A stretch of 32,000 bases of DNA from Candidatus Saccharimonadota bacterium (GTDB lineage Bacteria; Patescibacteriota; Gracilibacteria; BD1-5; UBA2023). A model generated the notes under the pieces. It saw only the letters and a program-made list of their open reading frames with translations, was not told the DNA's origin and made no database searches. This document shows, piece by piece, positions 1-32,000 of this stretch; the stretch's first letter is position 1; each line of letters starts with the position of its first letter. Position numbers and translations under genes: made by a program. The DNA lies in contig BAAFHK010000001.1 in assembly GCA_042852035.1 (NCBI GenBank), forward strand, positions 390,001-422,000, written 5' to 3'.

Positions 1-864
1 CGTATATCACATGATGAGGATTTTGTAAAAGAACTTAAAGATATTGGAAAGGGGTTTGAGGTCTATCTGCAATTCGATTCACTCAATCCAGAGGCCCTAA
101 ATAGTATACGAAATGCTGATATGACGAAAGTTCGACAGAAGGCACTTGAAATGCTTGAAAAATATCATATCTCAACGACATTGGTTTGCGTGATTGAAAA
201 GGGGGTCAATGATGAGGAAATTCCAAAACTTATAGAACATGCAAAGTCATGGAAGTGTGTACGGGGGATAGTTTTTCAGCCGATACAAAATGTTTGAAGA
301 AATGCCATTGAAGATCATGACTACCGAATCACGCTCTCGGAAATCCGTAATATTATAGTGAAAGATGAATCAAATCCATTTGCTGAGGATGATATGATTC
401 CTCTCCCATGTGATCCGCATAAAATTTGTGTCGGATACGCGATCAAGAATGGAAAAGATATCCTTCCGGTAACTGGAAAAATTCCAAGAGAAATGATTAC
501 TGAACAGAAGGGGACAATTGCTTTTGAACAGGACAAAGAGTTTATCAAAACAGTAGTTCATGCTGTAACACTAGATACGGCTCTCGGTGAAAATATTATC
601 AATAAAGAAAGCGTAAAACGTAAGCTTTTCTGTTGTTGGCCAGAATTTATTGCCCCAGAAGATATGACCTACGAGAGAGTATTTCGTATCGTTATCATGG
701 AGTTCACCGATATTTATAATTTCGACAGCACCAATATTAAGCGAGAATGTAACTTTATGATCGAGCCCGGTAAGGTAATACCATTTTCTACTTACAATAT
801 GGGACTTTCTCGTAGTTCAGAAAAGCCAAATCTAAGAGAAAAACTCGAAGCATGGAAAAAATAG
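1..864 (+). CDS. Radical SAM domain protein, C-terminal part. The 5' end lies outside the window.
   Basis: Frame 1 is open from base 1 and passes one TGA (295-297) inside ...IVFQPIQNV-G-RNAIED... The FQP..GR and PLPCDP segments resemble the C-terminal halves of radical SAM enzymes. It ends at TAA 862-864. The family call is from memory of motifs only. Confidence 0.55.
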
Positions 865-885
865 GCTCATTTTTTTAGTATTCAT

Positions 886-1413
886 ATGTTTCACTCGACC
901 ATCAAGCGAACAAAGCGTCGCACTCTTGCACTTCAGATAGATCATGAAGGAAATCTTATTATCCGTGCTCCGAACCGTATGCCCATGAGTCTTATCGAGG
1001 AATTTATAGCACAAAAAATAGACTGGATAAAAAAACATCAAAAGAGGATACAAGAAAAAAATAGTCTGCAACCACAAAAAACTTACAATAAAAATGAGTT
1101 CTTAACCGCTAAAAAAGAATTACAAGACTATCTTCTTCTAAGAGTACGAATGCTCTGGGAAAACACTAAACTTCCCCCCTATACTTCACTCAAAGTAACT
1201 CATTCGAATAAAAGATGGTGAAGTTGTAGCGGGAAGAATGGACTTTGTTTTTCTTATAGGCTTCACCAGTATATCGATGAAGATCCGAAGATTATCGATG
1301 CAATCATATACCATGAGCTTGCTCATCTAAAAGAGAAAAATCATGGAAAAAAATTTTGGGATATTGTTTTTTTCCTCGAGCCCAACTATAGAGATATCAT
1401 GAAAAGACTTTAA
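886..1413 (+). CDS. DUF45 / YgjP-like (M48 / WLM-type) metal-dependent hydrolase
   Basis: ATG at 886. TGA 1219-1221 falls in the family-typical KRW-G-SCS motif. The HExxH motif (YHELAHLKE) lies downstream. Stop is TAA 1411-1413. Length 175 aa. Confidence 0.75.
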
Positions 1414-1419
1414 TTTTTA

Positions 1420-5347: not shown

Positions 5348-6337
5348 CTAAAAAGCAAGAAGCATCTCCATAAAATCACTCTCTGTTTTTCCAGCTTTTT
5401 TCCACATTTTTGGAACAAGGGATGCAGTACTAAAGCCAGGGATTGTATTTACTTCAAGAAAGTATATATCCTTCCCATCATAACGCCAGTCCATGCGAAC
5501 AATTCATCGACAGCCAATAAATTCATAAATCTGAGCACTTTGTCTTTCGAGAGCATTTTTAAGTACTCATTCGATATCACTAAATACTTCATTTGATCCA
5601 TCGGTTTCATATTTTTCTTCATAGTCAAAAAAGTCACCCTTTTGTGTAATAATCTCTATGATGGGAAGAATATGGATTCAGAGGGAATCCTTGTAGGCCC
5701 CTACGGTGAACTCTCTTCATTCGATACATTCTTGCACCATCGGGACATCAGAGAGGGAGGGGAATTGTCGTACAAAGTGTGGAGTTGATTTTCAGAGAAG
5801 CAAAATCCTTTCTTGAGTAAGTGATTCAATCACTTCATTTACCGAATTTATTCCATTATGAAACTCTTCAAGTGTTCGAGCTTTTGAAGTAGCAAGGGAG
5901 CTTCATCACTGATTTGGCTTTATGATGAGAGCCTTTTCGAGTGAATCATCTCATTCAGAGGGGAGTAATTTTTGTGGATGTGGAAGTCAGGGTATCCAGC
6001 TTTTTGGGATTTTTACTCCGATTTTTTCCACCACACAATTGGTCCGGAATTTATCGATACAAAGAGCATGCACAGAAGATGAGCATCATGCAACCTTTAT
6101 TCCGAGAGTCTCACACATTCCAGTAATAATACCATCTTCACCATACCGACCATGAAATACTGGAATTACAAGTTCATAATTTTTATAGGCCTGAAGAAAT
6201 GCATCCACCTCTTCAGGGAGATCATAGGTTTGAACTTGGTGTCATGCTTTTTCTATCCATTGAGACATGTTTGCTGCACTTCTGAGTGCAACAGCCCGTT
6301 CAGTAGATATCCCTCCAGTAAGTATTGCGATATTCAT
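5348..6337 (-). CDS. ddl: D-alanine--D-alanine ligase
   Basis: Motifs are MNIAILTGGISTERAVALRSA, FHGRYGEDG, IIKPNQ-GG-SSLA (two consecutive TGA codons), GCR-G-IVRMDW and LEVNTIPGFS. Length 329 aa, stop TAG 5348-5350. I hand-translated the whole frame. Confidence 0.9.
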
Positions 6338-6438
6338 ACGCTCACTATAGACAGAGTTTAGGAAAATGCAAAAAATGCAGAACAATTTAAGAAACCATTA
6401 ATTATTGAGCTTATGATTTCTTTGTAGTAATTTTTATT

Positions 6439-8886
6439 ATGAAAAAGATTATTGCTCTAATATTTCTCATTCTGTATTGATCTCAGGAAGTTTTTGCATC
6501 TCTGGAGATTATCTTACTTTTTCCAAACCCAACATGAGATGATGTTCTAGGTGAATATATCGAGATTCATAATATAAGTTGTATATGATTTGATATTTCA
6601 TCCTATTCACTTTCAGATGCGAGTGGAAAAACATATTTTATACCAACTGGGACTTTTATAGAATGACATACCACAAGAAGATATTCATACAATGAAACAA
6701 AAATCTCACTTAATAATAATTGAATTGAAACGGTCTATTTAAAAAATTTCAGTTGAGAAATTATTGATTTGTATACTTATTCTTGAACACAAAAAGATGA
6801 TATAGTACTAGAAATTCCCTATCAAGATGAAGCGTGCGAAGCTTGAAACACTTGAACCGGGGTAATAACGGGTACGGGTATAATTTCTTCTTCGGGATCA
6901 ATAGAAAATCTCACATGAAGCGAATCAGAATCGAATAACTTTTTTTCTTGAAGTGAAACTATTTGAACTTTTACTGGAGAGATTACTGTCTTTAGCTGAA
7001 ATACAAATCAAAGTGGTGTTATTCAAATATCAACTGGAGAGTATATGGAGAATCAAAATATACTTACAAACAGTTGAATCGATGAAATAATCATATTTTC
7101 ATGAGTTAATCTGCATTTCACATGATCTATTTCCGCTGAGTGGCTCTACTACGATGATGAAGATTCTAATGGATTTATAGATAGGCTCTATATAACTTAT
7201 GAAGAAACTCTTACCGGAGCATTCAATACTTGATCCATAGCTCTTTCATCGTCCTCGGGGGGAATTTCTCAAGAAAAAATAGATACCGAAACTGGATACT
7301 TATTGTGATGATTTCTTTCGTGAAATACGCTCATATTAAAACTCAAAGAATGAAATATTCCTAAAAAAAATTTAAAAATAAATAATACTACCACGAGCGA
7401 GCTTCGATTGAAGTCGCTCTTAGATCTCTGATTTTATTCAATAAATGGACATTCGATATCTCCTTTGTACCTTACGAGTTCATTTATGAGCTACAAAAAT
7501 ACAGGTCCTAAGAAAACCTGAGAAGAACAAATTCAGATAGAAACTTGAGGCACAAATACCTCAGTAGTGACTGAGTGATCACTCTCATGATCGGATGGAA
7601 GTAATTTGACTGTATTTCCGAAAATTTTTCCAACTATTCAGTCTCCCACAAATGCAGTATATCAGTCATGAATTTTTCTTTGTACTGAGATTGATTGTCG
7701 AATTAATATAACTTTTGTTCCTATTTTTTCAGGCAGCCTGAAGGTTGGGGAGTATGATTGTTATTTTGGCACAGGAGAAAATCTACTTATTCAAGATGAT
7801 GACTGTAATCCAAATACCTATAGTTTTCATGAAAGTGGGAGTATTTTGTTCGAGCTTCTTCATATTAAAAGTCAAAGTAAAATTCAGGAGAGGTTTACTA
7901 TTGATTTCGATAAGCAATTGCTCATCGATTCCAAATCGAATGCGGCTATTCTCACTCAAGATACCGGAAAGCCTATTGCTATAATTGAGATTGATGGGAA
8001 GTGGAAAGAGTATTACGAGCAAATTGGAGATCATGAATTAAATTGCTATACATTCACATGTGGGATTAATTTTACTGCAGAAAAATCCTATGACCCCGAA
8101 TGAAATCCAATCAGATTCCTCTGGATATATGGACGAAATGACATAAAGACCTCAAAAGATCCTTGAGCACATAAATATGGAATCTGAGATCATCGCATTA
8201 TATTGCGAGTAATAGATGAATCAGAAAATTATGATGAGATTCTTTATATAATTCACGTACTCTGACCGAGACAAAATACGATACCAGAGAATGCTATTAA
8301 AGCGAGTATAAAAAAATCACAGAAGAAAATCTCAGCGCAGAAGTCAAAAGCCAAGAAAAAATATAAAAAAATCCATATGGAATTCTTTTCTTTACCAACA
8401 TTGTTTCTCCAAGGAAAAACAGGAAAGAGAATAAGTGAAGCTAATTTTCAATGTAGCACTAAAACAACAAAGACTTGTTCTCTAAACTTTTCCCTCTCTG
8501 GAACTCTTTCGAGCATGGAATATCGTTGGTATATAGATGGAAAAGAAGTTTATAAGGGAAAAAATCCAAAAGTCTGGAAATTCAGCCCCGGAAATCACAG
8601 TCTTACCATCGAAACCTATAGAAAATGATCTCTTATTGCGAGCTCAAAACAGATATTTGATATTAAAGTTATTGCAACAGCAAAAAAAGTGAAGAAAAGT
8701 GCGAAAAAAGCAAAGGCCAAAAAAACCAAGGATGTGAAGATAAAAATTATACCAACAACTCATGCATCAAACGATGATTCTATAGAGTGACAAAATTCAT
8801 CTATCCTTGCTCTTTTTATATTGCTTTCATGACTTTGATTCTGATTTCTTCTAAGGGGAAGAAAAAGAAAGAATCATTCTAGTTAA
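6439..8886 (+). CDS. Large secreted surface protein: signal peptide, lamin-tail domain (LTD), Gly/Ser/Thr-rich region, two PKD/Ig-like modules flanked by Lys-rich linkers, and a C-terminal hydrophobic anchor with a basic tail
   Basis: I translated it codon by codon from ATG 6439 to TAA 8884-8886 (815 aa). There is no TAA or TAG, and about 36 TGA codons by my count. The signal peptide is MKKIIALIFLILY-G-SQEVFA. The LTD-like stretch is LEIILLFPNPT-G-DDVLGEYIEIHN...SLSDASGKTY...VYLKNFS-G-EIIDLYTYS. The PKD-like stretch is SYDPE-G-NPIRFLWIYG...G-DHRIILRVIDESENYDE. The C-terminus is SSILALFILLS-G-L-G-F-G-FLLRGRKRK. Confidence 0.8.
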
Positions 8887-9002
8887 AATGGTTTTCTCTT
8901 TGCTCCCTTTTCCTATTGAATACATTTTTCGAACTTTCTTAACGTCAAACGGATTTTTCTTATTTCCCTTGATTTCTTTCATGGAAGATTATAATAACTT
9001 TG

Positions 9003-9211
9003 TATTCTCTCTTTTCTCGTGCATCTGGTCGGTATTTTTCTCTACAAATTATACCGCTTCCTAGGGCGGATGCCATAGTCTCCTATGGAGTCCGATCCGC
9101 TGTTATCATGGAGGGCAGAACCCGCTATGATCTCATTGCAACCAGGGATAAAATAAGATCTACAACGGTCGAGAGAGACTATAAAAAAGCACCGATATAC
9201 GGTGTTTTTTT
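9003..9211 (+). ncRNA. Candidate structured small RNA of unknown class
   Basis: It lies in a 323-nt gap with no credible ORF. TATAAT is at 8990-8995, with TTGATT 15 nt upstream. Nested perfect helices are 9030-35/9051-56, 9066-71/9095-9100 (enclosing 9073-78/9083-88) and 9105-11/9125-31 (enclosing GGG 9113-15 / CCC 9121-23). The segment ends in a strong terminator. The core 9056-9131 is about 55% G+C by hand count, against roughly one third for the window. Confidence 0.4.
9183..9211. terminator. Bidirectional rho-independent terminator
   Basis: The stem is aaaaaagcaccg / cggtgtttttt with the 5-nt loop atata. An A-run precedes it and a T-run follows, so it reads as a terminator on both strands. 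It lies between the plus-strand RNA candidate and the stop (TAA 9210-9212) of the minus-strand membrane protein gene. Confidence 0.65.
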
Positions 9212-10406
9212 ATTTTTGTTCGACTCACTTTTCTGGCTCTTCTTTTTCTTTTGAAGAATACGTAAACGTTTCACTATTTTTAATAGCAGCCTCTTGGATT
9301 GTTGTGTGCGTGCTTTTCACGAAGTGAAAGAATCATGTAATAAGGCCAATTCCTGGTGTATGTATATTTGTACTCTCTCTCGCATAAACAAGTATATGAA
9401 CTATAGGAAACAAAAGAAGAAGAAGATATGGGCTTGAGAATTCTTTTCTCCAGAAAAAGAAGAATGAAAATATCAAAGTAATAATGAGTCACTCGGTACT
9501 AATACGCCTATACGATTGAAATTTTTTGATAAATAGAGAGGGGATTGTAAAGAGATTCCAAAATGGAAGACCTATAAGACTAGCTGGCATAAAATATTTC
9601 TCTTCATGCGGAATAATTGATTCAGCTTCAGCAAGATAGCCTGAATAGTATTCTTTATAACTCCCTGATTTTTCCTTTCCAAGTGAAACACGAAAAAATT
9701 CAAAGATGCTTTTTACAGAAGCTTTTATATGAGCTTCGATTTCATTATACGTTAGAATTTTATCAACAATATTCCATGAAACAAATGATCCATAAAGAAA
9801 AATATAAATAGCTTCGACTACGAAAACTACTATTCCACTTATTAAAATCAAATTCGGAAGAAAGCCCACTTCAGATGAAATTAAGAATGAAATGAAATAA
9901 AGAAAGGCAAAAAGTGAACCGAGAACCCTTCATCGAATCATGATTGGAAGTTGATATTTTTTTGCTATCCATATTCCAAGGAGAGGAATCATGCTTGCAA
10001 GGATTCGAGATTTCTCTTCTTCACTTTCAATTTTGTATATTCAGGAAACTTCAATATTTCAGAGCTGATTTATATTTATGTTCGTTTTTTCTCATGGCAT
10101 ATTTCATAGATATGCATGGTAGGCTCAACGAGAAAGATAGAATAGAGTAATTCAAATAATACTAGCAAGTACGAGAGTTGCTACATTAATCCCAATTCAG
10201 GGTATTCCTATACTTATGTATTTTCGCACAAAAAAATAGAATACACATAATAGAATCATAATCCCAATAATTTTACTCGATTCTCGAGCATGAGATTGTA
10301 CATAGCTATCCCCGAGTGGGGTATCCTTTTTTGCAAAAAGAATAAATGGTCCAAGAAAAAAATAACTTATGATAGCGTTAATCCGAGATTGTTCGTTTGA
10401 ATACAT
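9210..10406 (-). CDS. Multi-pass integral membrane protein, function unknown
   Basis: Track ORFs 10197-10406 and 9489-9869 are in one frame. I hand-checked that they join through TGA codons and extend to TAA 9210-9212. Length 398 aa, with repeated hydrophobic stretches (IISYFFLGPFILFA, IIGIMILLCVFYFF, LILISGIVVFVVEAIYIFLY, LIITLIFSFFFFW, PYLLLLLFPIVHILVY). Confidence 0.6.
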
Positions 10407-10453
10407 AAGATGATTATAGTATATTCGTTGTTTCTAAGCAAATATTCTTGGCT

Positions 10454-11761
10454 TTATATTGACTTCTTTTTATGTGCAGCAAGGAAAGTTATAATAAGAA
10501 GGAGCACCTGTGTAACAAGGGTTACCCATGCTGATCAGATGAAACTATACCTTGGTATAAAGATGATATTTCAGGCAATATTTGTAAGTGCTACAAAAGC
10601 ATTAATATACATCATCTTTCGTTGCTCTCATTTTGAGATAAGTATATAAGTGTAGAGAGATGAGATAAAATACACTAAAAATATCCAAGCAACAATCTTG
10701 AGTGCATCCACCGAACTGTATCAGAGAAGCTTTGTTGATACAAATGCTTCCGTTGAGATTATTTTTATAATAGCTTCAGCACCAAAATAGAGGATACAAG
10801 CTCATATGAGTCATCAGAATGAAAGAAGCATAAGAGCATGTCTTGATATTTTGCGAAATTTCGCAGTATCTCATTTTTCATGTGCAGAAGTCAGTACGGG
10901 GAGGAGGGAATTGAGAAAAATTGTTCCATACATCATACCAACTTCAACAAGCTTCATCGGAAGTCCATAGAGGGCTACGGCCGTGTCTGCAATTTCTCTT
11001 GTCTCAAGTACTGAGAGAAGGATGGTATCGACTTTAAAAAATATCACATTAAGAAAAAGGGCAATTCCGTATGGGAGAGAAAGCTTAATAATTTCACGAA
11101 TATATTTTTTATCCCAGTGAAAAGTTATCTTTATAAATCTCCCTGTATACCACCATGTGAGACACATCATAAGAATATTTCCTGCAAGTCAGGCAAGCAT
11201 CACGAGTCAAAATTTTACTTCATCCATACTCCCATCTACCGCAGGATAGAGGACTCCTGCGAAGAGGAATACGAGACCGAAGGTAAGGAGCTTTCCGCTT
11301 GTATTCGCTACGAGAGTAAATTCAGTTCTGAGAGTTGCCTGAAGATAACTCATAAGTGAACTATTGACGAGTCATGCGAGCACGAAGAGTGAGGCAAGCG
11401 CTATGCCGATATAGGCACTTGGAGTATCATATCATGAGAGAAATGGTGCGATAGCAAGGGAGAGAAATATAATTATCCCTCCTGAAAGCGTCCTAAGCGA
11501 GAGAACATTTCATGATATTTTTTTTATCATTTCTCTATCATCTTCATACTTGGTAAGCTCTCGTACTGTTATCGTATAGAGTCCGAGATCAGCGATAACA
11601 GCAAAGATAGAAAGATAGTTATAGATTTTTGTATAGAGCCCATATCAGGCAACATCGAGGTAATTCGTAATGATTTTTATCATCACGATAGAGATGAGCG
11701 CGGTGAGTACTTTTGACCCAATTTGTGCTATGGTGTTGGTATATATTTTCTTCGTTGGCAT
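10454..11761 (-). CDS. MOP-superfamily flippase (Wzx / MurJ / polysaccharide-biosynthesis-protein family)
   Basis: ATG at 11761. The N-terminus is MPTKKIYTNTIAQIGSKVLTALISIVMIKIITNYL. The protein is hydrophobic throughout. The frame runs through about 16 TGA codons to TAA 10454-10456 (435 aa). The family call rests on the N-terminal motif and the topology pattern. Confidence 0.6.
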
Positions 11762-11857
11762 GATGGAAGTATAGAGAAAAGGAGGGGAGAGTCAAAATCG
11801 AGAAAAAGATATTGGATATTAAAAAGTACTGAATATACTGAATTAAACTACTTAAAT

Positions 11858-19280: not shown

Positions 19281-19309
19281 TCCTTTTGCGTCCTATAATT
19301 CCAAAAATT

Positions 19310-20371
19310 ATGTTTTTTTCACGAATTTCCATCAAAGATAAGGCTCTATTTTATGAAAATATTGCAAATCTTCTTGAGTGAGGAGTAACCCTAACTATAG
19401 CACTCAAGTGACTCAGAGATCGTCTTCCTCTTGGGAAACTTAAAGAAGCGATAGATCATCTTGTATTTTTTATAGAAAGTTGAGATTCGGTCAATGTATC
19501 GATGCGAAAATTGCCAAATTTCTTCGATGAACAGGAAATAGCGATTGTTGAAAGCTGAGAACAAACTGGTATGCTACAGGCATCATTTTTTGAAATTGCC
19601 AATGACCTTCGAGGGCAGGAAGAATTAAGAAACAAAATTACAAGTGCTATGACTTATCCTGTAATTATACTTTTCTTCCTCGTGCTCGCTGTCATGGTCG
19701 TTATGGTTTATGTTGTTCCACAGCTTGTGCCAATCATTACAAGCATGTCGACAGAACTTCCATTTATGACAAAGGCTCTCGTCAATACAAGTAAATTTCT
19801 CAAGGAGAACATCATAACTCTTCTCCTCTCATGATTCTGAATCTCTCTTATTATATTCGGATATCTAAGCTCTGAGGTTGGAGCATATCAGTGGGATAAA
19901 CAAAAAATTCTTCTCCCGATAGTGTGACCAGTATATAAGAACTACCTCATAGTTCGCACCATGTCAACATTTCATCTTCTTTCCAGCGCATGAGTAAGTA
20001 TTGTTAAATCCCTTAGACTTACGGGGGAGAGCTCATGAAATATAGTTGTAAAAAAGATTTATGCTGCCGTTTCAGAAGATATCGCTAGCTGACAGAAAAT
20101 TTCAACATCAATGGCAAGTCATGATGCTGAGCAGAGCTTCTTTAGTTTAGATATTCTGCAGATGATTGAAGGAGCTGAAAGAACTTCAACTATTGGCGCT
20201 GTTGCAAAAAAGATTTCTACTCAATATAAACGCGAAGTTGATTTTGCCCTTGCAAATATGGTTAAGTATATTGAACCGATAGCACTTCTCTTGGCTGGTA
20301 TTTTTGTACTTTGGTTTGCTATAGCAATTTTTTGAGCTATTATGCAAATTGTCGGTATTGCTTGACAATAA
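19310..20371 (+). CDS. pilC: Type IV pilus / type II secretion platform protein (PilC/GspF family)
   Basis: Length 353 aa, with a two-fold internal repeat of the T2SSF type: ALFYENIANLLE-GG-VTLTIAL ... IVES-G-EQTGML, then TFHLLSSA-G-VSIVKSL ... MIEGAERTS. There are three hydrophobic segments. Stop is TAA 20369-20371. Confidence 0.8.
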
Positions 20372-20374
20372 AAT

Positions 20375-20929
20375 ATGAATCTCTATCGGGGACATAAAAA
20401 CCAAAACGGTTTTACACTCGTTGAAATGATGATTGCGATTTCAATTATCGTTATTCTCACTTCGATTGCATTTATTCCATTTTCATACTATTTAGAAAGA
20501 GCAAAAGTAGAAAAAAATGCGGACACATTAGGCCAGGAATGGCTCATACTTCATGAAGATATCCGAAACTGACTTGTATACGATTCTACCGATCCGCTTT
20601 CACAACACGCACATCTATTTGCTACATTAAAAAAGGACAATGATTATATCGATATCGAGGTCTCAACAGGCTCCCTGACCTCAAAAAAGTTTTATAAACG
20701 AATTGATCTTGAAAAACCTATAAAAATTCTTGCATTTTCTTGAAGCGCTGACGGTGCTAATACGATAATATATCATCTTGTTCCGCCACACGCTACCGGT
20801 GCTTATATCATTGATGCGAATCCAGAAATAGCCATCTCTACATGAATTATTGTAGAAATTTGATATACTGAGGCTACGCTTTCATCATGAAGAGCTCGAC
20901 AGATTCTCTTAAGACCTCGATATAATTAA
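20375..20929 (+). CDS. Prepilin-type protein (candidate major pilin)
   Basis: The N-terminal cleavage/methylation motif is KNQNG-FTLVEMMIAISIIVILTSIAF. Length 184 aa, stop TAA 20927-20929. Confidence 0.75.
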
Positions 20930-20930
20930 A

Positions 20931-21566
20931 ATGAAACTGACTCATCACCTCATAACGAACCGACGCTGATTTACACTGGTAGAACTTATTATAGGTATGA
21001 CCATTTTTGTCGTTTGAATGACTGCTATTCTTACACTCCTAAATTCAGCCGTAAGCTCATCACAGCGATCTAAAAATGAAATCATCGCTGCAAATATTCT
21101 CCGTGAACAAGTTGAACTTGTAAAAAATATACGAAATACAAATGTACGAAGTTTTGCACTTTGGTCTAGCTGAATCGTGCCAAATCTCTATACAATTGAA
21201 AATGACTACTCAAATTCACTGACCACGTATACAAATGGAATTCCTACCTCTTGACCTGTAAAAATGACCACGAGCACTATTTTGCAAACCGATTGACTGA
21301 AGGATAGATTTGAAAAGGCTCGCCTCTATATCGATGATAAATGAAGGTTTACTCACGCTATAACATCCACCGGGTCAAATATTGCATCCTACATTACAAT
21401 AACTCCTTTGCAATTTAGTCGACCTGCGTGAACTCCTCTTGTTCTCGAGCCAAAAGATAGAGACGGAAACAATCAATGATATATTCTTGATGCTCGAGTA
21501 ATTATAAACTCAAGTGGATTTAGAGAATATGATCTTAAGACTGTTATTACAGACTGGCAAAAATAA
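20931..21566 (+). CDS. Prepilin-type minor pilin / pseudopilin
   Basis: The motif is NRR-G-FTLVELII-G-MTIFVV, with the cleavage-site glycine encoded by TGA. Length 211 aa, stop TAA 21564-21566. Confidence 0.75.
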
Positions 21567-21568
21567 CT

Positions 21569-22234
21569 ATGAAACTCTCAAAGAATACATCTTGATTTAC
21601 TCTTGTTGAGCTTGTTCTCTCAATGACAATTTTTGCTGTCATGATGACAACAATAATCTCAATATATATTCAAACCACAGCCTTAAGCTATCGACTCAAG
21701 GCAGCGAGATATCTATCTGAAACAGCAAGAGAAATAACCGAAAAGATTTCTGAAGATGTAAAGGAGTATGGTATGACCTGATCAACGTTAGTAAGTGCGT
21801 ATTCGCCTTGGAGTACCCTTAATTATTCTGACTGAAATGAAATTCTCGGTATCGGTGATGGAAATAAAAAATATATCTATTGAATAAAAGAGTTGGTAGG
21901 TCCAAATTGGACGATTAATCCATGTAATGACCCAAGAAAATCTGACCCAAGAGAACACTGCTGACTTTATGAAGTTATCGGAAGTTCAGCGCAATCATAT
22001 CAAGATGCATATAATCTTGTTGATAGTTTTATCCCTGAGGAATCAAAGAAAAGAGTAAAAGTTAAGGATCTGCGTTTTTATATATCATGAGATGGGATAA
22101 GAACTGAAAAAAAAGTTACTCTCGTACTTACTCTTGCTCTTATGCCCCGGATTTGAGTACCAAAGCTTTCAGTTGATAACAGCACCCTCTCCCTCCAAAC
22201 AACTATAACGGCACGAACATTTCAAAAAAACTAA
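21569..22234 (+). CDS. Prepilin-type minor pilin / pseudopilin (GspJ/PilW-like size)
   Basis: The motif is KNTS-G-FTLVELVLSMTIFAVMM. Length 221 aa, stop TAA 22232-22234. Confidence 0.7.
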
Positions 22235-22235
22235 T

Positions 22236-23201
22236 ATGTATAGCTCTCCTATTACATCAAAGAAGGGATTCTCGATACTAATAGCACTGGGATCAATTTG
22301 AGTGCTCATGATTATTGTTATTGGGATGGTACAAGTTTTTCTTACGGAGATGAGACTTTCGAGATATCAATATGATTATATCCTTGCAAATGAACAAGTG
22401 GAATGAGCATTTGAATATGCTATGCTCAAAGTAGGTAATCACCGTGATGGTTTTCAGGATGAGGTAACTGAATCTGATCTTGATCAAATACTTTTCTCCT
22501 GAGCAACTGATAGAACCACTAATAATAAAATTACCTACCATATTTATGCTCAAACATGAAATTTGAGGGAAACTATCCTTCCATGAGACTACCTCATCTT
22601 TCCATTATTTTCTGGGGATGATGACTATATAGTTAGCGGAAAACCTTCGAAAATCCCAAATATAAATACCTGAAGTACTATCGTGGATAATTTTCGAATG
22701 TCTCTCTCAATGACGCCAGAAAATATATATTGGAGCATTATTGCCATGAGCGGTTCTCAAAATGTAAGTCTTTCATGAACCTGAGAAATTAATGGTACTG
22801 AAAAAGGTTTAAGCAGATTAATATGAGTGGAGTGTATCGATAACGCTGGAAATAGCGTTGCTCCGATTGATAATTCCTGCCCTCCAGCAATTATTTCGGC
22901 GGGCTGAGAGGCATTACAGTATTTTTTTGATCAAGAAAGTACGGTAGAAGATTTTCTTAAAGTACATGGAGTATGAGTCAATGCTCGACAGGTTCAAGAT
23001 CCATACTTTCTCGTATTTAATAAATGAGCCAACCCTGTTAATCTCCTTATCCAATCAAATGCATCAACTCCATTTGCCCTGCAAAATCTTACCATAGTTG
23101 TTGAGGCAAAGAAAGGAAAAGCAATACAAACTATTCGATTCAATTCAGATAAAAGTAAATATTATGATGGGCTCAAATATTCACTTTATGACACTCAATA
23201 A
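22236..23201 (+). CDS. Minor pilin lacking Glu5 (GspK/PilX-like)
   Basis: The N-terminus is SKKGFSILIALGSI-G-VLMIIVIGMV. It has the pilin-like hydrophobic helix without the conserved Glu. Length 321 aa, stop TAA 23199-23201. It is the last gene of the operon. Confidence 0.55.
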
Positions 23202-23225: not shown

Positions 23226-24572
23226 TTATTCCATATCAAAGTCACCATCTCGAGTTCGTTCAATCTCATAGAACTTTTGATGTTGCTTTTCAAATTTTAA
23301 GTCAACCTGGCCCGTTGGTCCATTTCTGTTTTTTCTTATGAAGATATTTGTTACATTTGGTGTTTCAGAGAATTCATTGTAATAATCATCACGATAGAGC
23401 ATAAGAATAATATCAGCATCTTGCTCAATGGCTCATGATTCTCTTAAATCTGACATTACAGGCCGCTTATCTGGTCGTGCCTCAAGCGCACGGGAGAGCT
23501 GTGAAAGAGCAATAACTGGAACATCAAGCTCTCGGGCGAGACTTTTAAGCCCTCGAGAGATTTCAGAGACTTCTTGAACACGATTCATGCTATTTCAACT
23601 CGAAATAAGCTGAAGATAATCGATAACTATAAGATCAAGTCATGATTCCATTTTCAGTCTTCTTGCTTTTGATTTAAGTTCAAGTATTCATGCTCAAGCA
23701 GGGGAGTCATCGATATAAATCTTTGCTTCTGAAAGCTTCTCAAGAGCATCACCCATTCGTGCAAATTCATCTTCTGAAAGTTTTCCTTTTTGAAGTTTCC
23801 AACTATCCACAGCCATTGATGCGGCTATCATACGATCTGTAAGCTGCTCTTTGGACATTTCGAGGGAAAATATTGCAACATTTTTCCTCTTTTCTCATAC
23901 ATTCTGAGCAAAGTTTAGTGCTATAGCTGTCTTACCCATACTCGGACGAGCTGCGATAATAATAAGGTCACCCCGCTTAAATCATCAGAGTTTATAATCA
24001 AATCAAGCATATCAAGTAGATACACTATTTGCTTGAACAAGTTCTGGATCAGCATGAATTGCAGCAAATTCTTCATAGCGAGCATTCAAAATATCTTTTA
24101 TATGAACGAGCTTATTCTGGATAAAGGTCTGAGTTACTGCAAAAAGTCATTTTTCAGCCTTCTCAAGAAGCTCATTTATTTCCGAAATTTCATCAAAGCC
24201 TATTTGTGTTATTTCAGATCATGCCCGAATAAGCTTTCTGAGTACTGATTTATTTTTTACAATTTGAGCATACTGAAAGATATTTGCACTTGTAAAAACT
24301 GAAGTCATAAGATCTGCAAGAAATGCATCTCCCCCTATAGAATCAAGTTTCTTCTGGTCATCTATAGATTCCCTAACAGTAAGGGAATCTATAGGCTTAT
24401 TTCGGGTATATAATTCAATCATTGCCCCGAAAACAATAGCATGAGCAGGTTCATAAAAGTCTTCAGGAGCTAAAATACTTGCAACTTGAAGCATGCCATC
24501 CTTATCAATAAGGATTGATCCAAGTACGCCGCGTTCAGCCTCGAGTGAATGTGGTGGGGTGGTGAGTGACAG
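23226..24572 (-). CDS. dnaB: Replicative DNA helicase DnaB
   Basis: The N-terminus is [23 protein letters not shown]. Further motifs are Walker [53 protein letters not shown] and KNRNGPTG. Stop is TAA 23226-23228. The start is uncertain: no ATG, GTG or TTG lies upstream of the conserved N-terminal motif. I placed it provisionally at CTG 24570-24572; the first ATG is at 24494. Confidence 0.85.
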
Positions 24573-24590
24573 ATTTATAAAATTTATTAA

Positions 24591-25865
24591 TTATAATTGT
24601 TTTTCTCAAAAATTTCCAGCAAGCTCATCTTCAGTAACTAGCTTCGAAATAAGATCAATAATTTCTTGGTTATACGGGGTAAGATTCTTTAGTTTTATAA
24701 GGGTTTCTATCGCTCATCTTCTCTCTCCTTTTGTGATTTGAGATTGTGAATAAAGCCAGAGAATTTCTGGATTTTTTGGATATTGCTTTAAGTATAACTT
24801 TGAATAAGCATATACATCGTCTGTAAGACCCAATTCTGATGCAATATGGGAAAGAGTATAGAGGATCTCTTCGGTCTCTCATGATAAGGAGAGAATCTTT
24901 TTATAGATTTCATACGACACCTCGAATTTTCTCTGCATAGCAACTACCGTTGCAAGATGCGTAAGTATTTCAACATCATTTGAGTCATTTTCAGCAAGCT
25001 CTTTGAGAACGAATTCTGCCTTTTCAAATGCATGATCTCTTTCGTAGAGCCCAGCCATGAGAAGATTCAAATCTCTATTTGATTTCTCAAGAGAGAGTCA
25101 GTTCACTATGAGTGCACGAGCTTCATCAATATGTCATCTTGCAATAAGGGTTTTTGCATTGTTGACAATCTCAAGGACTTTTTCTTTTTTTTCTGGAGAT
25201 AGGGGAGTACGTTTTTTTGTTTCTTTTAGGAATTCATCATCATGACTTTTTTCCTTTTTTGAATGATTTAAATGGTTCGATTTTTTGTTTTCAGTATTGG
25301 CTTCTATAGCATTTTCCTGTACTGCCTTCTCAGCCTCATGAGGTTCTTGGTTATTATTTATTTCCTCAATACTCTTTCACTCAAGTGAGTCTGAGGCAAG
25401 GAATTCAGGAGATCCTTCACTAACATCCGTTGATTCTTCTATATGTGAATCATTAACCGAATTTTCTCAGTTTATCTCCGTTATTGAGTCTATAGATAGA
25501 GAAGCTTCTTCTAGTTTAATATCATTTTCATTAAATGAAGCATCTCAGGTTAGATTTATTTGAGATTCATCTTCTATTACTCATTTATTTTCAGTATCTA
25601 AGTTTTCTTGAGTTGAGTTCTCAACATTTTTTAGTTCATCATCAATTGTTTCGAGTGTAATTGCGGGAGTTTGAATACTATTAGAATCATCTTTGGTTTC
25701 AATAGAATTTTGCTCTGTGTATGCTTTTCTTGGATAAAGTTCTCTATATTTTTGCTTCACCCACACAGTGGCATCATATATAAGAAAAAGGAGGATGATT
25801 CAAAGACAAAAGAAAACAATAATAGCTTCAACTGAGGCACTATGATTCAAAAAAAGGAAATCCAT
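24591..25865 (-). CDS. Membrane-anchored TPR-repeat protein with a long acidic low-complexity linker
   Basis: It runs from ATG 25865 to TAA 24591-24593 (424 aa); I hand-checked every codon in 25070-25865. It has an N-terminal TM helix (AIIVFFCL-G-IILLFLIY), an Asp/Glu/Ser/Asn-rich segment of about 190 aa, and C-terminal TPR-like helices (AKTLIAR-G-HIDEARALIVN-G-LSLEKSNRDLNLLMAGLYERDHAFEKAEFVLKELAEND...). Confidence 0.6.
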
Positions 25866-25983
25866 AGATTATACTAAAAGCGAGTTTTATAGTAAGAGGA
25901 AGCACAATTTTAACGTTGTCTAGCATATGAAGATTACTAAATTTTGCAAACGAGAAATGGAATTTTTCTTTTTAAAAAAAGAT

Positions 25984-26011
25984 TTGCATTTCTTAATGCT
26001 TGTTATATAAT
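25984..26011 (+). promoter_or_regulatory. Sigma70-like promoter of rplS
   Basis: TTGCAT (25984-89), a 16-nt spacer, then TATAAT (26006-11). It lies about 28 nt upstream of the rplS ATG. Confidence 0.55.
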
Positions 26012-26038
26012 CCACCGCGTTTCACGTTATTTTTCTTT

Positions 26039-26401
26039 ATGGACTCTACACTCTTACAAGCAATTCAAGCAAGCACTCAAACTACTCCACAGAACGACCA
26101 AGACCTAAGAACAGGTATGGAAGTTGAAGTTCACCAAATAATAAAAGAAGGTGATAAGGAGCGTACACAAACATTCAAAGGGATTATCATCTCTATGAAA
26201 GGAAAGACTTCCCTTGATAAAGTCATCACTGTCCGTGCGGACGTAGATGGTATCGGGATAGAAAAGATTTTCCCTGTTAATTCCCCTTATGTAGCGAAAA
26301 TAGTAGTATTACGTCAATTTAAGGTTCGACGAGCTAATATTGGATACATAAGAGAACTTACTGGAAAGGCAGCTCGTCTAAAAGAGATTAAGTCAAAATA
26401 A
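26039..26401 (+). CDS. rplS: 50S ribosomal protein L19
   Basis: The sequence ...LRTGMEVEVHQIIKEGDKERTQTFKGIIISMKG...ITVRADVDGIGIEKIFPVNSPYVAKIVVLRQFKVRRANIGYIRELTGKAARLKE carries the classic L19 signature. I placed the start at ATG 26039; the track's longer ORF starts at a non-ATG codon. Length 120 aa with no TGA codon. Confidence 0.9.
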   Translation: MDSTLLQAIQASTQTTPQNDQDLRTGMEVEVHQIIKEGDKERTQTFKGIIISMKGKTSLDKVITVRADVDGIGIEKIFPVNSPYVAKIVVLRQFKVRRANIGYIRELTGKAARLKEIKSK

Positions 26402-26403
26402 TA

Positions 26404-26427
26404 AAAGGCTCCTTTGGAGCTTTTTTT
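26404..26427 (+). terminator. Rho-independent terminator after rplS
   Basis: The stem is aaaggctcc / ggagctttt (one G-U pair) with the loop ttt, followed by a T7 run. Confidence 0.6.
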
Positions 26428-26731
26428 AATTCAATTTAAAAATTTTACATGCTAAATCTTACGAATATTTAGCTTTAATTTTTTATAAAAAAATAAGTAC
26501 CTTGTTACGAGTAAAAGTTCACATTTTGAGCTTGATTTTTTCGTGAAGCAGCTGTGAAGAGAGTTAGAGGATTTTCTGTTCAAATAGGGTATACGGGACT
26601 CTCTGTCAAATGTTTTTTTTCTTTTGACTTCAGTTAAAAAAAGGATAAAAAGACATTCACAAATATGGAGTATAAGTATATTTATAGAGCGAAAAGTAGA
26701 AGTGTCTAGTGTTCCTTCCTCCTTCAATTTT
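26421..26731. other. Candidate chromosomal replication origin (oriC) upstream of dnaA
   Basis: The 330-nt gap lies directly upstream of dnaA. It has an extremely AT-rich tract (about 26421-26497) followed by four copies of a TTCAC(A/G) core in both orientations (26516-21, 26542-47, 26553-58, 26656-61). These match the relaxed DnaA box TTWTNCACA at 6-7 of 9 positions. Gene orientation flips nearby: dnaB and the TPR gene are on the minus strand, while rplS, dnaA, rsmI and trhO are on the plus strand. Confidence 0.45.
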
Positions 26732-28156
26732 ATGTCTCAAATTTTCACATTTTCCGACCTTGAATCAGCAATGCGTAATATTGCGAGTTCTATTCGAAAA
26801 CAAGATTTTCTTACCTACTTCAAAAAGTTTTCACTTGTTAATGCAAATGAAACTTCCGTTGTACTCGGAGTTGTTTCGGGATTCCACCGTGATAACTTAA
26901 TGAAGAAGTTTATAGTAGAGATAGAAAAAGCGATCAGAGAAATTCGCCCTTCTATCAATACTATAGAAATCACTGTTGATGAAGAGATGGAAATGAAATG
27001 ATCTGAGTGTGTAATCGAATGTAAGGGTCTCCTAAAAGAAACTGAAAAAACTCTTAAAAAGCAACAAGTAGAGTGAGTTGAAATCGTTGAATGATTGAAT
27101 AGCCGACTTATAAGTGATCGCTATAGACTCGATAATTTTATTATCTGACCCTCTACTCAGCTTGCTCATGCTGCCTGTGAAGCGGTATCAAGAAAGCCTG
27201 GTGGATCGTATAATCCACTCTATCTATATTGAAATGTTTGACTCGGAAAAACTCACCTCCTCCAAGCGAGTGCTAATCTCATCCGAGAAAAACACAAAAA
27301 CCTTAAGGTTATTTATACTACGGCAGATCGTTTTCTAACGGATTATGTTGCGAGTATAAAATGAAGATCTATCGATAAACTGAGAGAAAAATATAGACAG
27401 ATTGATGTTCTTGTAATAGATGATGTTCAGTTTCTTGCAGGAAAAAAGCAAACTCAAGAAGAACTCTACAATATATTTAATATCCTTTACGAAGCTGGAA
27501 AACAAATTATTTTATCTTGAGATCGCCCCCCAAAGGAGCTTACCGAGCTAGAGCCTCGACTCCAGAGCAGATTTGAATGGGGAATAACCGTAGATATCGG
27601 CGAGCCCGATTATGAAACTCGCCTCGCTATTATTCAGGAAAAATCAAGAGCCAGAGAGTTTATTCTTGAGCAAGAAGTTGCTGAATTTATCGCAGAAAAT
27701 GTAACCAATAATGTCCGTGAAATTGAATGAGTACTCAATCAGATTATAGCCGAATATGATCTAAGAAATACTCCTCCAACACTTGAAAATGTCGCCTTCA
27801 GGCTCTCTAAGCTTGCAGTGAGATCAATTACTCAGACGCTAACTGAAAGTCGATCTATACGACCTGGAAACTGTGGTTACGAAGATCTTTTACAAGCTGT
27901 ATCCTGACACTTTGGTATAGAGATACGAACACTTCTTTCTGAAGATAGAAAAAAAGAAAATATGATTCCACGACAGGTTGCTATGTATCTTCTAAAAAAT
28001 CGACTTCACTATACTTACGAACGTATCTGAAACATATTTTCTTGAAGAAACCATACAGCAGTAATGTATTCCTGCAAAAAATTAGAAGAAGTAATGAAGA
28101 AGGATCAACAGGTGGTCTACGAGGTGAACATTATCCGAGATAAACTCTGAATTTAG
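26732..28156 (+). CDS. dnaA: Chromosomal replication initiator protein DnaA
   Basis: Motifs are Walker [93 protein letters not shown], and in domain [10 protein letters not shown]...[19 protein letters not shown]. Length 474 aa, stop TAG 28154-28156. Confidence 0.93.
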
Positions 28157-28170
28157 TTGCAATATAAAAA

Positions 28171-28200
28171 AAACTTTCTAGACTAATAGAAAGTTTTTTT
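28171..28200 (+). terminator. Hairpin plus T-run between dnaA and rsmI
   Basis: The stem is aaactttct (28171-79) / agaaagttt (28188-96) with an 8-nt loop. A T-run follows and ends at 28200, directly abutting the rsmI ATG at 28201. Confidence 0.5.
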
Positions 28201-28863
28201 ATGCTTTCTATCGTATCAACCCCCATCTGAAACCTTGAAGATATAACACTTAGAGCTTTGAGAATTCTAAAAGAAGCTGATTATATTGCTTGCGAGGATA
28301 CTCGTATGACTGGACAATTACTCCAGCATTATCAAATAGAAAATAACGGTCGACTCCTCTCATTTCATTCACACTCATGATTTTCAAAGCTCGATAAGAT
28401 CATCGACCTTCTCAAGACAGGGAAACATGTAGCCCTCGTATCTGACGCTGGAACTCCTTGAATAAGTGACCCTTGATTTGTATTAATAAAGAAAGTAATT
28501 GAAGAGGGAATGGAGGTTACACCTGTTCCTTGAGCTTCAGCTGTTCTTTCGGCTCTTGTTGCAAGCGGTATTGATTGCCATCAGTACCTCTATCTCTGAT
28601 TTTTACCCGTGAAAAAATGACGACAAACACTTCTAAAGTCTCTTAAAGTTAAAGAATATACTGTTGTCGTCTACGAATCTGTTCATAGGATTGAAAGAAC
28701 ACTTGAAGAACTTGAAGCATATCTCTGATCTGATCATTATATCGTTATCGGGAGAGAGATTACCAAAAAATTCGAAGAATTTAAGAGAGGGACGATAAGT
28801 GAAGTGAGAAAATACTATTCTGAATGATGAAAGGTAAAAGGAGAGTTTGTGCTTGTATTTTAA
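28201..28863 (+). CDS. rsmI: 16S rRNA (cytidine1402-2'-O)-methyltransferase RsmI
   Basis: Motifs are [79 protein letters not shown] and VVYESVHRI. Length 220 aa. Confidence 0.85.
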
Positions 28864-28929
28864 TGATTCTATTTATAATCCAAGTGTCCGAACAACAATT
28901 CGCACATTTATTTTTTCGCAACAACGAAT

Positions 28930-30042
28930 ATGATTTCCCAACTTAACGCTCGTCATAAGCCAAAATACAGTCTTTTAACATTCTATAAATTTATTGATAT
29001 TCCCGAGAAAGAGTTAGAGTCTCTGGCTCAAGAACATTTAGATTTTGCTCGCGATATTGGTTTAAAATGACGTGTTTACATCGGAACGGAATGAATCAGC
29101 TCTACGGTGACAGGAAATCAGGGTCAATGCTGGGCCTATAAAAAATTCCTTGAGAATTCAAAATATTTCCAAGACATTCCTGATATTGATGAAAAATCTA
29201 CTCCAGTTGAAGATCATCAATTCCCAAGAATGAGCGTAAAGATACGAAATGAAATAGTTACCCTCTGAGTAAAAGTTACCGCGGATCAGGTAAAAAAATA
29301 CAAAAGGGAGCTATCTCCTGAGGAATTTAAGAAAATAATTGATGAGGATAAGTCTGATGAATATTTAATCCTTGATATGAGAAATGACTATGAGTATCGA
29401 CTTTGACACTTTAAGGGCGCCATACCTGCAGGTACAGTAAACTTCCGAGAAGTTCCAAAACTTCTGGAACAATACTGAAAGGCAGCAAAAGGAAAAAAAA
29501 TTATCTGGTATTGCACATGAGGGATACGCTGTGAAAAAGCGGCAGTGTTATGAAATCAAATCGGAAGTACTGAATTTTATTCTATTGAATGAGGGATTGT
29601 TAAATATGTTAATGCTTATAATGACTGAAATTGGCTTGGAAATCTCTATACATTTGATGGGAGAGTCTCAACTCAAGTTGGTGATGAAAATACTCATACC
29701 ACAATTTGAGAATGCCTTTACACATGAGAAAAAACCGATAATTGCGAAAATTGTCGATATGCGCCCTGTAATGCACGTCTTATCTGTACTGAGAAAGCAT
29801 ATAAAAATCACCTCTGATTCTGTTCAGAAGAATGCTATAAAAATGCACGTCAAGATGGTCTAATAAAAAATATGAGTTGGGATAAATTTGATTATCTTGG
29901 TCTCGGTAGGGTGTGGAGACTTGATTGATCAAAAAAGGATTGAATCATCAATGAAATTCAACAACATCTCGATCAGAAACTCGGAAAAATCGAATGGAAA
30001 AACAAGGTTTCACAAAAAGAAGAGGAAATACTCGAGTGCTAA
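28930..30042 (+). CDS. trhO: Rhodanese-domain tRNA uridine(34) hydroxylase TrhO (YceA/YbfQ, UPF0176) with a Cys-rich C-terminal region and an extended tail
   Basis: Motifs are FYKFIDI, RVYIGTE-G-ISSTVTG, LDMRNDYEYRL-G-HFKGAI, WYCT-GG-IRCEKA and FYSIE-GG-IVKY, followed by a CxxC/CxxxC-rich segment. Length 370 aa, stop TAA 30040-30042. Track ORF 29531-29863 is out of frame with it. Confidence 0.8.
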
Positions 30043-30095
30043 TTATAGAATAATAAATTGCAACTTTTAATTGATTCTGATACTGTATATGTATC

Positions 30096-31574
30096 ATGAG
30101 TCTTGTCTGACAACTTCATCCACATTACGGAAAAAATGATATCGTTTGAGTTCATCGAGATACCGATCTTGTGCTTGCTTTATTTCGCGAACACCCAGAA
30201 GTAAGTCAATTTAGAGATAAAGTTGTATGAATATTAGCACAAAATCCAGAAAAATGAACTCACTTGCGCAATAGGCTCCAAGAAGCATATGGCGATATGG
30301 GAAAGCCATCAATACAAGAAATAAGCGATATTGATGCCCATAACCTTTCTTGAGTTGATAAATTACATTTTACCTATCAAAATCTTTTAGCATTTCGCTA
30401 CTTCGCACAAAGATATCCAGTAGCTGCAACTGAAATATTTCTACGAAATATAAAAGAAATTCTCACAGAATATTGACTGAATGAAGCTAAAATAGTATCT
30501 ATCTGACAAAGTGTTTGAGAGGTAACCTGAGAAGACTTTTGATGAACACTAGAAAATCTTAAAACCCATGTTGAGAGAATTGCTTTTCTTGAATGATGTA
30601 TTGAAAGGGGGATATTTCTCAGTGAGATTATTGAGCATGCACAATACCAGAGGGATAAACTTAAAAAAGAACGTGAAGCCTCTTTTGAATACTGGGATTA
30701 CAATAATATTGTAGTTCTCGCTCAAACACGAAAAAGGTGACTTAATAGAGGTAATGACTGAGGGAAATCATTCTCGCTTTCATGATGATCAGGGAATGCA
30801 TTAACACAACTCAGTATAATCTCTAAATATATAGAAAGTGGATGACATATACGATCCATATCATGAACAAGTCTTTGATCTACTATAGCTGTTTTAGTGG
30901 GTAGTATTTGAGATAATCGACAAAAAATGGAGCAACTTATGCAAGATATCCAATCTATGAATGAGCTCTGAGAAATTCCAAAAGATCTGAGAAGCTCAAA
31001 GAATCAAAAGGCATTTTTATCGACACTTAAAAGACTTCTCTTGAGATATTGAATCAATGATAAAACAAGGTTTTCGGATCTAAAAATTCCGGTAGTTATA
31101 AATGCCTGAAGACAATCAGGAAACCTAAGTGAACAAGAGATAGTTCTTTGATGAAATGAGCTTGTTATAGATTCTATAATGGCTTCTATGAATGTTCCAA
31201 TTGGATCAAAGAATATTGGAAAGTTTTGATGAACCAAAGTTCATTGAGTACCAATGATTGATTATGCTGCAAATGAACGCTGAAATCCTACCCACTGGCT
31301 TGAGCTTTTAGGAGAAGCACAAAAAAATATAGTTGCCATCGATGTGGGATACTCATCAGAAAGAGGATGAAGCCCTCTGGTAAGAAGATTATTCCAAAGA
31401 GCGACTATAAGGGATTTTTATGCAAAAATGCGCATAGCTACGAATGGAGGAATAGTAATAGACGCACCACTAGAATCTAAAGAATGATATTTATTCCCTC
31501 CTTGAGCTATTGAGAGGTTTTATAAGATTGGGGAAGAGCTCTATAAAAAATTTTTTAACGAGCAAGTCGAATAA
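30096..31574 (+). CDS. Patatin-like phospholipase domain protein with an N-terminal helical domain of about 200 aa that I do not recognise
   Basis: It runs from ATG 30096 to TAA 31572-31574 (492 aa) with about 40 TGA codons. The patatin blocks appear in order: LS-GG-SGNAL (oxyanion-hole-like), IS-G-TSL-G-S (GxSxG nucleophile elbow), MASMNVP (ASxxxP) and PMIDYAANER-G-NP (Asp block, DYA instead of DGA/DGG). Confidence 0.6.
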
Positions 31575-32000
31575 TAAATCTCGCTCCTTGGGGGTGATTT
31601 TTTTCAACTTCAAGTCCTCATCGATGAAGACGAGCAATTCGATCAACAATCGATAGTCCTATACCCATGCTTTTATCTGTTTGATTTCTTCCTTTATCAA
31701 CACGATAAAATTTTTCTTTTACAAACTCAAGTTCACTATCTGGTATTCCAATTCCATTATCCTCAAAGATAAATATATATTCCTTTTGTTCTTTAAAATA
31801 TTTAATTCTGAGTTCTGTTGACTCACCAGAGTACTTTATAAAGTTTGAAATCATGTTATGTAAAATCTGTACATACATTCATTTATCCATACTTGTCATA
31901 GTATCTTCAGGGAAATGAAGTGAGATTTTCTGATGATTTTTATCAAGCTGTGGACGGTACTCTAGAATAATGGATTCCGATATTTTTTTAATAGAAAAGC
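31555..32000 (-). CDS. Sensor histidine kinase, C-terminal HATPase_c part. The 5' end lies outside the window.
   Basis: Motifs are the N box ILHNMISNFIKYS, the G1 box FEDNGIGIP, and the G2 box DKSMGIGLSIVDRIARLH. The frame reads through TGA to TAA 31555-31557, overlapping the convergent patatin-like gene by 20 nt. Confidence 0.8.

Follow-up and report, generated by a model that had tools for sequence, protein, structure and literature searches.

In the bacterial lineages Gracilibacteria and Absconditabacteria, UGA has been reassigned from a stop signal to glycine (Gly). A glycine transfer RNA (tRNA) with anticodon UCA is expected in the recoded members, and release factor 2 is found only in non-recoded ones (Shulgina and Eddy, 2021, PMC8629427; Hanke et al., 2014, PMC4032931). 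The code is listed by NCBI as translation table 25 (Campbell et al., 2013 and Rinke et al., 2013, both as cited in PMC8629427; Hanke et al., 2014, PMC4032931), and the glycine identity elements of tRNA(UCA) comprise G1:C72, C2:G71, G3:C70 and U73 (PMC8629427). An extended code, in which CGA and CGG are also shifted from arginine (Arg) to tryptophan (Trp), has been published for Absconditabacteria, and a shift of CGG alone to Trp for some Gracilibacteria (Shulgina and Eddy, 2021, PMC8629427). In this study, we compare with these codes a stretch of 32,000 nucleotides (positions 390,001 to 422,000 of contig BAAFHK010000001.1), called the window below and numbered from its first letter. Judging from the alignments and scores given below, the organism almost certainly uses table 25, with UGA read as Gly and only UAA and UAG terminating translation.

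TGA as a sense codon and the residue it encodes

A preliminary description of the window had proposed that TGA is a sense codon throughout, that almost every gene is broken under the standard code, and that full-length proteins are obtained which stop only at TAA or TAG. Greedy, non-overlapping stop-to-stop open reading frames (ORFs) mapped over the window bear this out. Read with TGA as a stop, the window has 80 ORFs (median length 80 amino acids; longest, 304), and these cover 68.7% of it; read with TGA as a sense codon, it has 33 (median 330 amino acids), of which 19 reach 300 amino acids or more and which together cover 97.5%. Control reassignments yield only three ORFs of at least 300 amino acids when TAG is read as sense and one when TAA is, so that the effect is specific to TGA. 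In the corrected gene set, in which gene calls were fixed by inspection and Pfam matches, neither TAA nor TAG occurs in frame within any gene, and of the 31 genes whose ends lie in the window 24 stop at TAA and seven at TAG, termination thus being confined to UAA and UAG. In-frame TGA accounts for 308 of the 10,352 codons (3.0%) and is spread over about 33 genes, at a guanine plus cytosine (GC) content of the window of 35.4%. Pfam domains extend across the TGA positions; the Walker A region of DnaA (27221-27262) reads YLY-stop-NV-stop-LGKTHLL in table 11.

The residue encoded by TGA was approached by four lines of evidence, none of which presupposes its outcome, namely solved structures from the PDB, the codons found in related loci, Pfam scores of alternative translations of TGA, and amino acid composition. 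The last of these is the simplest. GGN codons alone would give an abnormally low Gly content of 3.8%, which rises to 6.8% when TGA is added. Trp amounts to 0.84% from TGG alone and would reach an abnormally high 3.9% if TGA were read as Trp.

Related loci were collected by a scan based on the replicative helicase DnaB with one genome per GTDB species, giving 80 loci with a DnaB identity of 60-92%; 22 genes of the window have orthologues there. Every ORF of these loci delimited by TAA or TAG was then aligned with the window proteins, in which TGA had been masked as X, and the codons facing each other were read. Among 4345 pooled codon pairs, TGA of the window faces GGN in 51%, TGA in 17%, a serine (Ser) codon in 8% and TGG in 0.1% (5 pairs). 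This profile is indistinguishable from that of the GGN codons of the window (GGN 52-57%, TGA 13-18%, Ser 7-11%), and TGG codons face Trp in 68% of their pairs and essentially never TGA. Scoring was then done per site, with the relatives' own TGA ignored to guard against pseudo-replication and circularity, which left 150 informative TGA sites. Gly is the majority residue at 107 of them. Restricted to positions of at least 80% conservation, the count in the relatives is Gly at 77 of 81 TGA sites, Ser at three, glutamate (Glu) at one and Trp at none. By the same measure GGN codons correspond to Gly at 90-95% of sites and TGG codons to Trp at 20 of 20, and at conserved sites each of the remaining 61 sense codons has its standard meaning.

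Independent of these relatives, DnaB, DnaA, Ddl, RsmI, TrhO, TsaE, PolA and RseP (TGA as X) were aligned to PDB chains of standard-code organisms. By a hand count that takes a single homologue for each protein, Gly stands at 39 of 74 aligned TGA sites and Trp at none; the remaining sites are variable positions (with alanine, lysine, Glu, Ser or another residue). Among the Gly sites are the Walker A motif GxxGxGKT and RELEG of DnaA, TGF and RESGSIEQDAD of DnaB, GDLGAGKT of TsaE, GYV(E/T)T of PolA, KPxxGGSS of Ddl, TPIGNL of RsmI, CTGGxRCE of TrhO, and both the PDZ motif GSPADxxGIxxGD and NxxPxxxLDGG of RseP. Specifically, DnaA of B. subtilis, Thermotoga and Aquifex has Gly at the Walker A, GxG and RELEG positions, and Gly is invariant in four solved DnaB structures at the two dnaB motifs of Table 1. 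TsaE of H. influenzae (HI0065) reads GDLGAGKT. One TGA of the polA-like gene corresponds to the Gly of GYVTT in the Bacillus Pol I large fragment, and the second faces a variable aspartate. E. coli RsmI has Gly at six of ten TGA sites, TPIGNL included, and the best solved TrhO homologue (9j5o) at seven of twelve aligned sites, with CTGG[IV]RCE present in both 9j5o and Legionella lpg2838. In the case of RseP, the PDZ motif of the Aquifex protein reads GSPADQVGIKPGD, and Gly occupies eight of 14 aligned TGA sites overall.

Finally, ten proteins were each translated in three ways, TGA being rendered as Gly, X or Trp, and their Pfam bit scores compared. Gly scores above Trp in 14 of 14 TGA-containing domains, with a summed difference of about 187 bits, and the Trp translation scores lowest, below X in nearly all domains. 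The N-terminal domain of DnaB, which is free of TGA, is unchanged (118.4 versus 118.3). The PDZ domains of RseP rise above the gathering threshold only with Gly. The proposal that TGA columns match Gly, and neither Trp nor gaps, thus stands on relatives, structures and family profiles alike. All nine motif strings that had been quoted in its support are present with TGA where it had been placed. Their description as family-invariant glycines needs correction at two positions, which are variable: the TGA directly after P-A-D in RseP aligns to glutamine in the Aquifex structure, and the first TGA of KPNQ-TGA-TGA-SS in Ddl is Gly in one solved homologue (KPNSGGSS) and alanine in another (KPVRAGSS). 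In each case a neighbouring TGA is the conserved Gly.

Rival readings and the decoding machinery

Several observations weigh against table 25. Four TGA codons at conserved sites align to Ser (three) or Glu (one) in the relatives, and the Ser of the DnaA motif SDRPP, where the window has TGA, is Ser in four of four solved DnaA chains. The relatives whose codons were compared probably use this same code themselves. Furthermore, no tRNA gene of any kind occurs in the 32-kb window and no tRNA(UCA) in the 81 loci that were fetched (the 80 relatives and one contig of the Logan assemblies), so that we infer the decoding machinery rather than observe it. To guard against circularity, only unambiguous codons of the relatives were counted, next to PDB sequences of standard-code organisms. 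The rate of non-Gly residues at conserved TGA sites equals that of GGN codons and TCA and TGA are a single step apart, and we therefore regard the Ser- and Glu-aligned codons as ordinary substitutions. TGA is found at a conserved Ser of the homologues in DnaA (27518-27520, SDRPP), RseP (codon 177), PilC (codon 365) and DnaB (codon 148). Seen at the sequence level, such sites look like Ser-to-Gly replacements eased by the new code.

Reading TGA as Trp (table 4, the code of Mycoplasma, Spiroplasma and certain insect endosymbionts) gives the same ORF structure as table 25, so that ORF lengths alone cannot separate the two, and a GC content of 35% resembles that of code-4 organisms. The residue itself leaves this reading a minute chance: TGG is the partner in 5 of 4345 codon pairs, Trp is absent from the conserved TGA sites and occupies 20 of 20 conserved TGG sites, none of the 74 sites in solved homologues is Trp, the Pfam scores are lowest with Trp, and the Trp content would become abnormal. 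In addition, two loci of GN02-873 (L017 and L018), at about 80% DnaB identity, carry a tRNA-Trp with a CCA anticodon, which fits UGA not being read as Trp. Should TGA still be a stop, the window would have to be degraded, pseudogenised or error-ridden. The breakage of almost every gene under table 11 is what one would then see, yet the interruptions are solely TGA and never TAA or TAG, they fall on specific conserved Gly columns, and the frames are otherwise intact over about 31 kb, with no frameshifts. TGA or GGN at these positions is moreover common to 80 independent assemblies, and an independently assembled Logan contig of 1,947 nucleotides (DRR350542_6511383) is 100% identical to 24823-26769 of the window. 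Genuine interruption of the genes thus has next to no likelihood at all.

A dual meaning is conceivable in which TGA is mostly Gly and terminates in some contexts, or in which tRNA-Gly(UCA) misreads UGG by wobble. The ambiguity of U34 between UGA (Gly) and UGG (Trp) has been noted as a potential problem (Shulgina and Eddy, PMC8629427), and the penultimate codon of dnaA is TGA. We consider it extremely unlikely nonetheless, given that every gene ending in the window has TAA or TAG near the ends of its homologues, that TGA makes up 3% of codons across gene bodies, catalytic motifs included, and that TGG is strictly Trp at its 20 conserved sites. The extended code of the Absconditabacteria type, with UGA as Gly and CGA and/or CGG moved from Arg to Trp, has the published precedents cited above, including Gracilibacteria for CGG, and CGG is indeed rare in the window (21 codons). 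CGA is common: its 118 codons correspond to about 114 per 10,000, and Absconditabacteria have fewer than 37 in the same number of codons (PMC8629427). With the relatives' own CGA and CGG left out, CGA has a majority of Arg at 41 of 65 informative sites and of Trp at none; the seven informative CGG sites have majorities of Arg (five), lysine (one) and Ser (one), and pooled Trp is 0.0% for both codons. The CGG of dnaB at PDK[R]P faces an Arg that is invariant in solved DnaB. An extended code is thus very improbable, and by these alignments the code is plain table 25 with CGA and CGG as Arg, the verdict on CGG being drawn from seven sites. A further reassignment of AGG, CGG or CGA was also considered and rejected; the pooled signal of AGG and CGG towards Gly or TGA consists of two DnaB sites replicated across the 80 loci.

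Under table 25, and following the published data on the lineage, a tRNA-Gly whose anticodon is UCA would decode UGA, release factor 2 would be absent, and release factor 1 alone would terminate at UAA and UAG. The tRNAs in the loci of the relatives are only Trp(CCA), threonine, glutamine, Arg(CCG) and Ser. A general Pfam scan of the window proteins, covering the 32-kb window only, contains no release factor domain among its matches.

Genes, non-coding features and annotation

The gene names given in the preliminary description agree with Pfam, which recovers DnaA, TsaE, PolA, a YgjP/DUF45 protein, pilins, a TrhO-type UPF0176/rhodanese protein, Ddl, an RsmI-type methylase and an RseP/M50 protease (Table 1). 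Further Pfam identities in the window comprise DnaB, a Mur ligase (murF-like), a RimO/MiaB-like radical-SAM enzyme, PrsW, PilC and ribosomal protein L19 (rplS).

Table 1. Features of the window with their in-frame TGA codons and Pfam matches (bit scores with Gly, X and Trp at TGA where compared; the dnaA coordinates are those of the stop-to-stop ORF).
Feature	Coordinates	Strand	In-frame TGA	Motifs with TGA positions	Pfam match and score (bits)
YgjP-like/DUF45 metallopeptidase	865-1413	+		RW-TGA-SC, 1219-1221	YgjP-like 108
ddl	5348-6397	-	11	KPNQ-TGA-TGA-SS, 5906-5908 and 5903-5905	Dala_Dala_lig_C 100.8 (Gly), 86.7 (Trp)
Structured region between convergent genes	9055-9215	+
Bidirectional terminator hairpin	9181-9213
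Spurious ORF antisense to flippase	10409-12439	+
Flippase, 454 aa	10457-11818	-			Polysacc_synt/MurJ-like 85.5
polA-like, 475 aa	12430-13857	+	3	TGA-YVET, 13471-13473	DNA_pol_A 462.7
rseP (M50 protease with PDZ)	15384-16595	+	16	TGA-TGA-PAD-TGA-A-TGA-IEK-TGA-D, 15909-15947	Peptidase_M50 156.4 (Gly), 133.5 (X), 128.3 (Trp)
tsaE	17636-18073	-		Walker A TGA-DLGS-TGA-KST, 17969-17971 and 17954-17956	TsaE 90.6 (Gly), 74.5 (X), 73.8 (Trp)
Type IV pilus-like cluster	18119-23201	+
Gene (called by inspection and Pfam)	18119-18670	+
Three pilin genes	20372-22234	+		TGA-FTLVE in two, 20967-20969 and 21593-21595	N_methyl
dnaB	23226-24590	-	12	ST-TGA-YA, 24012-24014; RES-TGA-AIEQDAD, 23433-23435	DnaB_C 346.2 (Gly), 334.3 (X), 326.3 (Trp)
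dnaA	26588-28156 (ATG about 26732)	+	13	Walker A Y-TGA-NV-TGA-LGKT, 27230-27232 and 27239-27241; FII-TGA-PST, 27146-27148; REIE-TGA, 27728-27730	Bac_DnaA 214.5 (Gly), 203.8 (X), 198.5 (Trp)
rsmI-type methyltransferase	28168-28863	+	10	TPI-TGA-NLED, 28228-28230	TP_methylase 109.7 (Gly), 92.7 (Trp)
trhO (UPF0176/rhodanese)	28879-30042	+	14	CT-TGA-GIRCE, 29518-29520
TGA-rich ORF	30057-31574	+	34 of 505 codons (6.7%)	LS-TGA-TGA-SGN, 30783-30788; S-TGA-TSL-TGA-S, 30864-30866 and 30876-30878	Patatin 28.0 (Gly), none (X, Trp)

The polA-like gene encodes a polymerase domain only (DNA_pol_A spans residues 87-471 of about 475); neither a 5'-nuclease nor a 3'-5' exonuclease domain was found in it, and the ORF upstream has no Pfam match. 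The TGA of the YgjP-like gene stands at the Gly of RWGSC, which we take to be the motif of this family. Of the three pilins, two have TGA at the prepilin cleavage site and the third has a GGN-coded Gly in G-FTLVE, thereby serving as an internal control for the other two. The pilins belong to a compact type IV pilus-like cluster, whose other members are PilC (T2SSF), two small membrane proteins that are unannotated and a 330-amino-acid protein without Pfam match, and which is kept in 24-28 related loci. The richest gene in TGA is the last ORF of Table 1. It matches Patatin just above the cut-off of 27.7 bits, and only with Gly at TGA; its TGA codons lie in a GGxG-like motif and in a GxSxG-type lipase motif. 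Based on these features, it is probably a divergent patatin-like phospholipase.

At gathering thresholds, no Rfam family was found in the whole window. The spacer between two convergent genes listed in Table 1 has a higher GC content (about 42%) and folds on the plus strand at -55 kcal/mol (z = -4.2), with the hairpin at its end. A permissive Rfam scan of 8800-9300 returned only sub-threshold matches at chance level (rimP leader, 26.6 versus 47 bits). From its predicted fold, this region, which lies outside the related loci, could be a small RNA or merely a structured 3' untranslated region. DnaA boxes were searched as TTATCCACA with at most one mismatch, giving 14 matches versus 9.7 expected in the window; this is the consensus of E. 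coli. With it, no box lies in the rplS-dnaA spacer (26401-26730), no cluster was found beside dnaA and oriC was not located; if the origin is here, it would use a box consensus other than that of E. coli.

The value of these results is practical rather than conceptual, in that the contig needs the right translation table. Under table 11, gene calling breaks nearly all of the genes on it into fragments. Table 4 gives the right ORFs, but places Trp at about 3% of residues, catalytic glycines included, lowers domain scores and hides weak families, as follows from the Patatin match that appears only with Gly. Reading TGA as sense also has a cost, since it opens long spurious antisense ORFs such as the one of 586 amino acids opposite the flippase gene. 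Longest-ORF calling takes the wrong strand there, and a genuine small gene is apparent only in the last 190 or so amino acids of the ORF on the plus strand (11864-12439).

Relatives, spread of TGA and comparison with described codes

All 80 related loci are titled Gracilibacteria, Patescibacteria group, "(uncultured) Candidatus Peribacteria" or "bacterium". The best DnaB match (92% amino acid identity) is JAYVIJ010000058 of Ca. Gracilibacteria, and none of the top DnaB matches bears the label Absconditabacteria. The earlier assignment to Gracilibacteria or Absconditabacteria can be narrowed to the former, as the nearest relatives are metagenome-assembled genomes (MAGs) of Gracilibacteria or Patescibacteria and CGA and CGG are Arg. 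By its protein matches, the window comes from the chromosome of a member of Candidatus Gracilibacteria (BD1-5/GN02 lineage) within the Patescibacteria, or candidate phyla radiation (CPR). Despite the 92% identity of DnaB, the nearest GTDB species representatives show about 71% nucleotide identity over alignable parts, and the exact organism is therefore not among them. The identical Logan contig places the same organism in the sample of run DRR350542.

Peribacteria are described as using the standard code. Four MAGs titled "uncultured Candidatus Peribacteria bacterium" (CAYSEP010000001, CAYVAG010000002, CAZQUZ010000007 and CAZXUQ010000003) have a DnaB that is 86-90% identical to that of the window, and carry in-frame TGA at Gly positions, at a share of 14-22% of all codons for Gly. 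The translation table is thus not predicted by the taxonomic label, which on several close public MAGs could steer pipelines to the wrong table.

TGA is the single most used Gly codon of the window. Its share of 44% at 35% GC is about twice that in the nearest sequenced relatives (14-26% at 86-92% DnaB identity). Among the 80 loci, shares lie anywhere between 2 and 92%, with a Spearman coefficient of -0.90 against GC content. At orthologous Gly positions compared with one relative (L002), the window has TGA where the relative has GGN in 87 cases and the reverse holds in 22, an asymmetry of about 4:1. Under table 25 the change from GGA to TGA would be a single synonymous transversion, through which AT-biased mutation would drive the use of TGA up as GC falls. 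It is possible, and we propose it tentatively, that the lineage is in a rapid, recent takeover of Gly coding by TGA under AT pressure. If this were true genome-wide, the clade would offer a natural series for following the spread of a reassigned codon.

Among the described codes, table 4 of Mycoplasmatales, Entomoplasmatales and some endosymbionts has the same ORF map, the same TAA and TAG stops and likewise occurs in low-GC genomes, and differs in that the TGA columns of the window are Gly and never Trp. The extended code of the sister lineage Absconditabacteria (Shulgina and Eddy, 2021, PMC8629427) has UGA as Gly in common with the window, where CGA and CGG are still Arg and CGA is not depleted. 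Table 25 is matched in every respect that was compared: UGA is frequent in-frame at Gly columns, translation stops at UAA and UAG alone, the genome is that of a low-GC CPR bacterium, and Gracilibacteria MAGs are nearest. Nothing of substance sets the window apart from it, its 44% of TGA among Gly codons falling within the range of the 80 loci. The reassignment of UGA to Gly that we describe here is thus an already known one, catalogued since 2013 as NCBI table 25.

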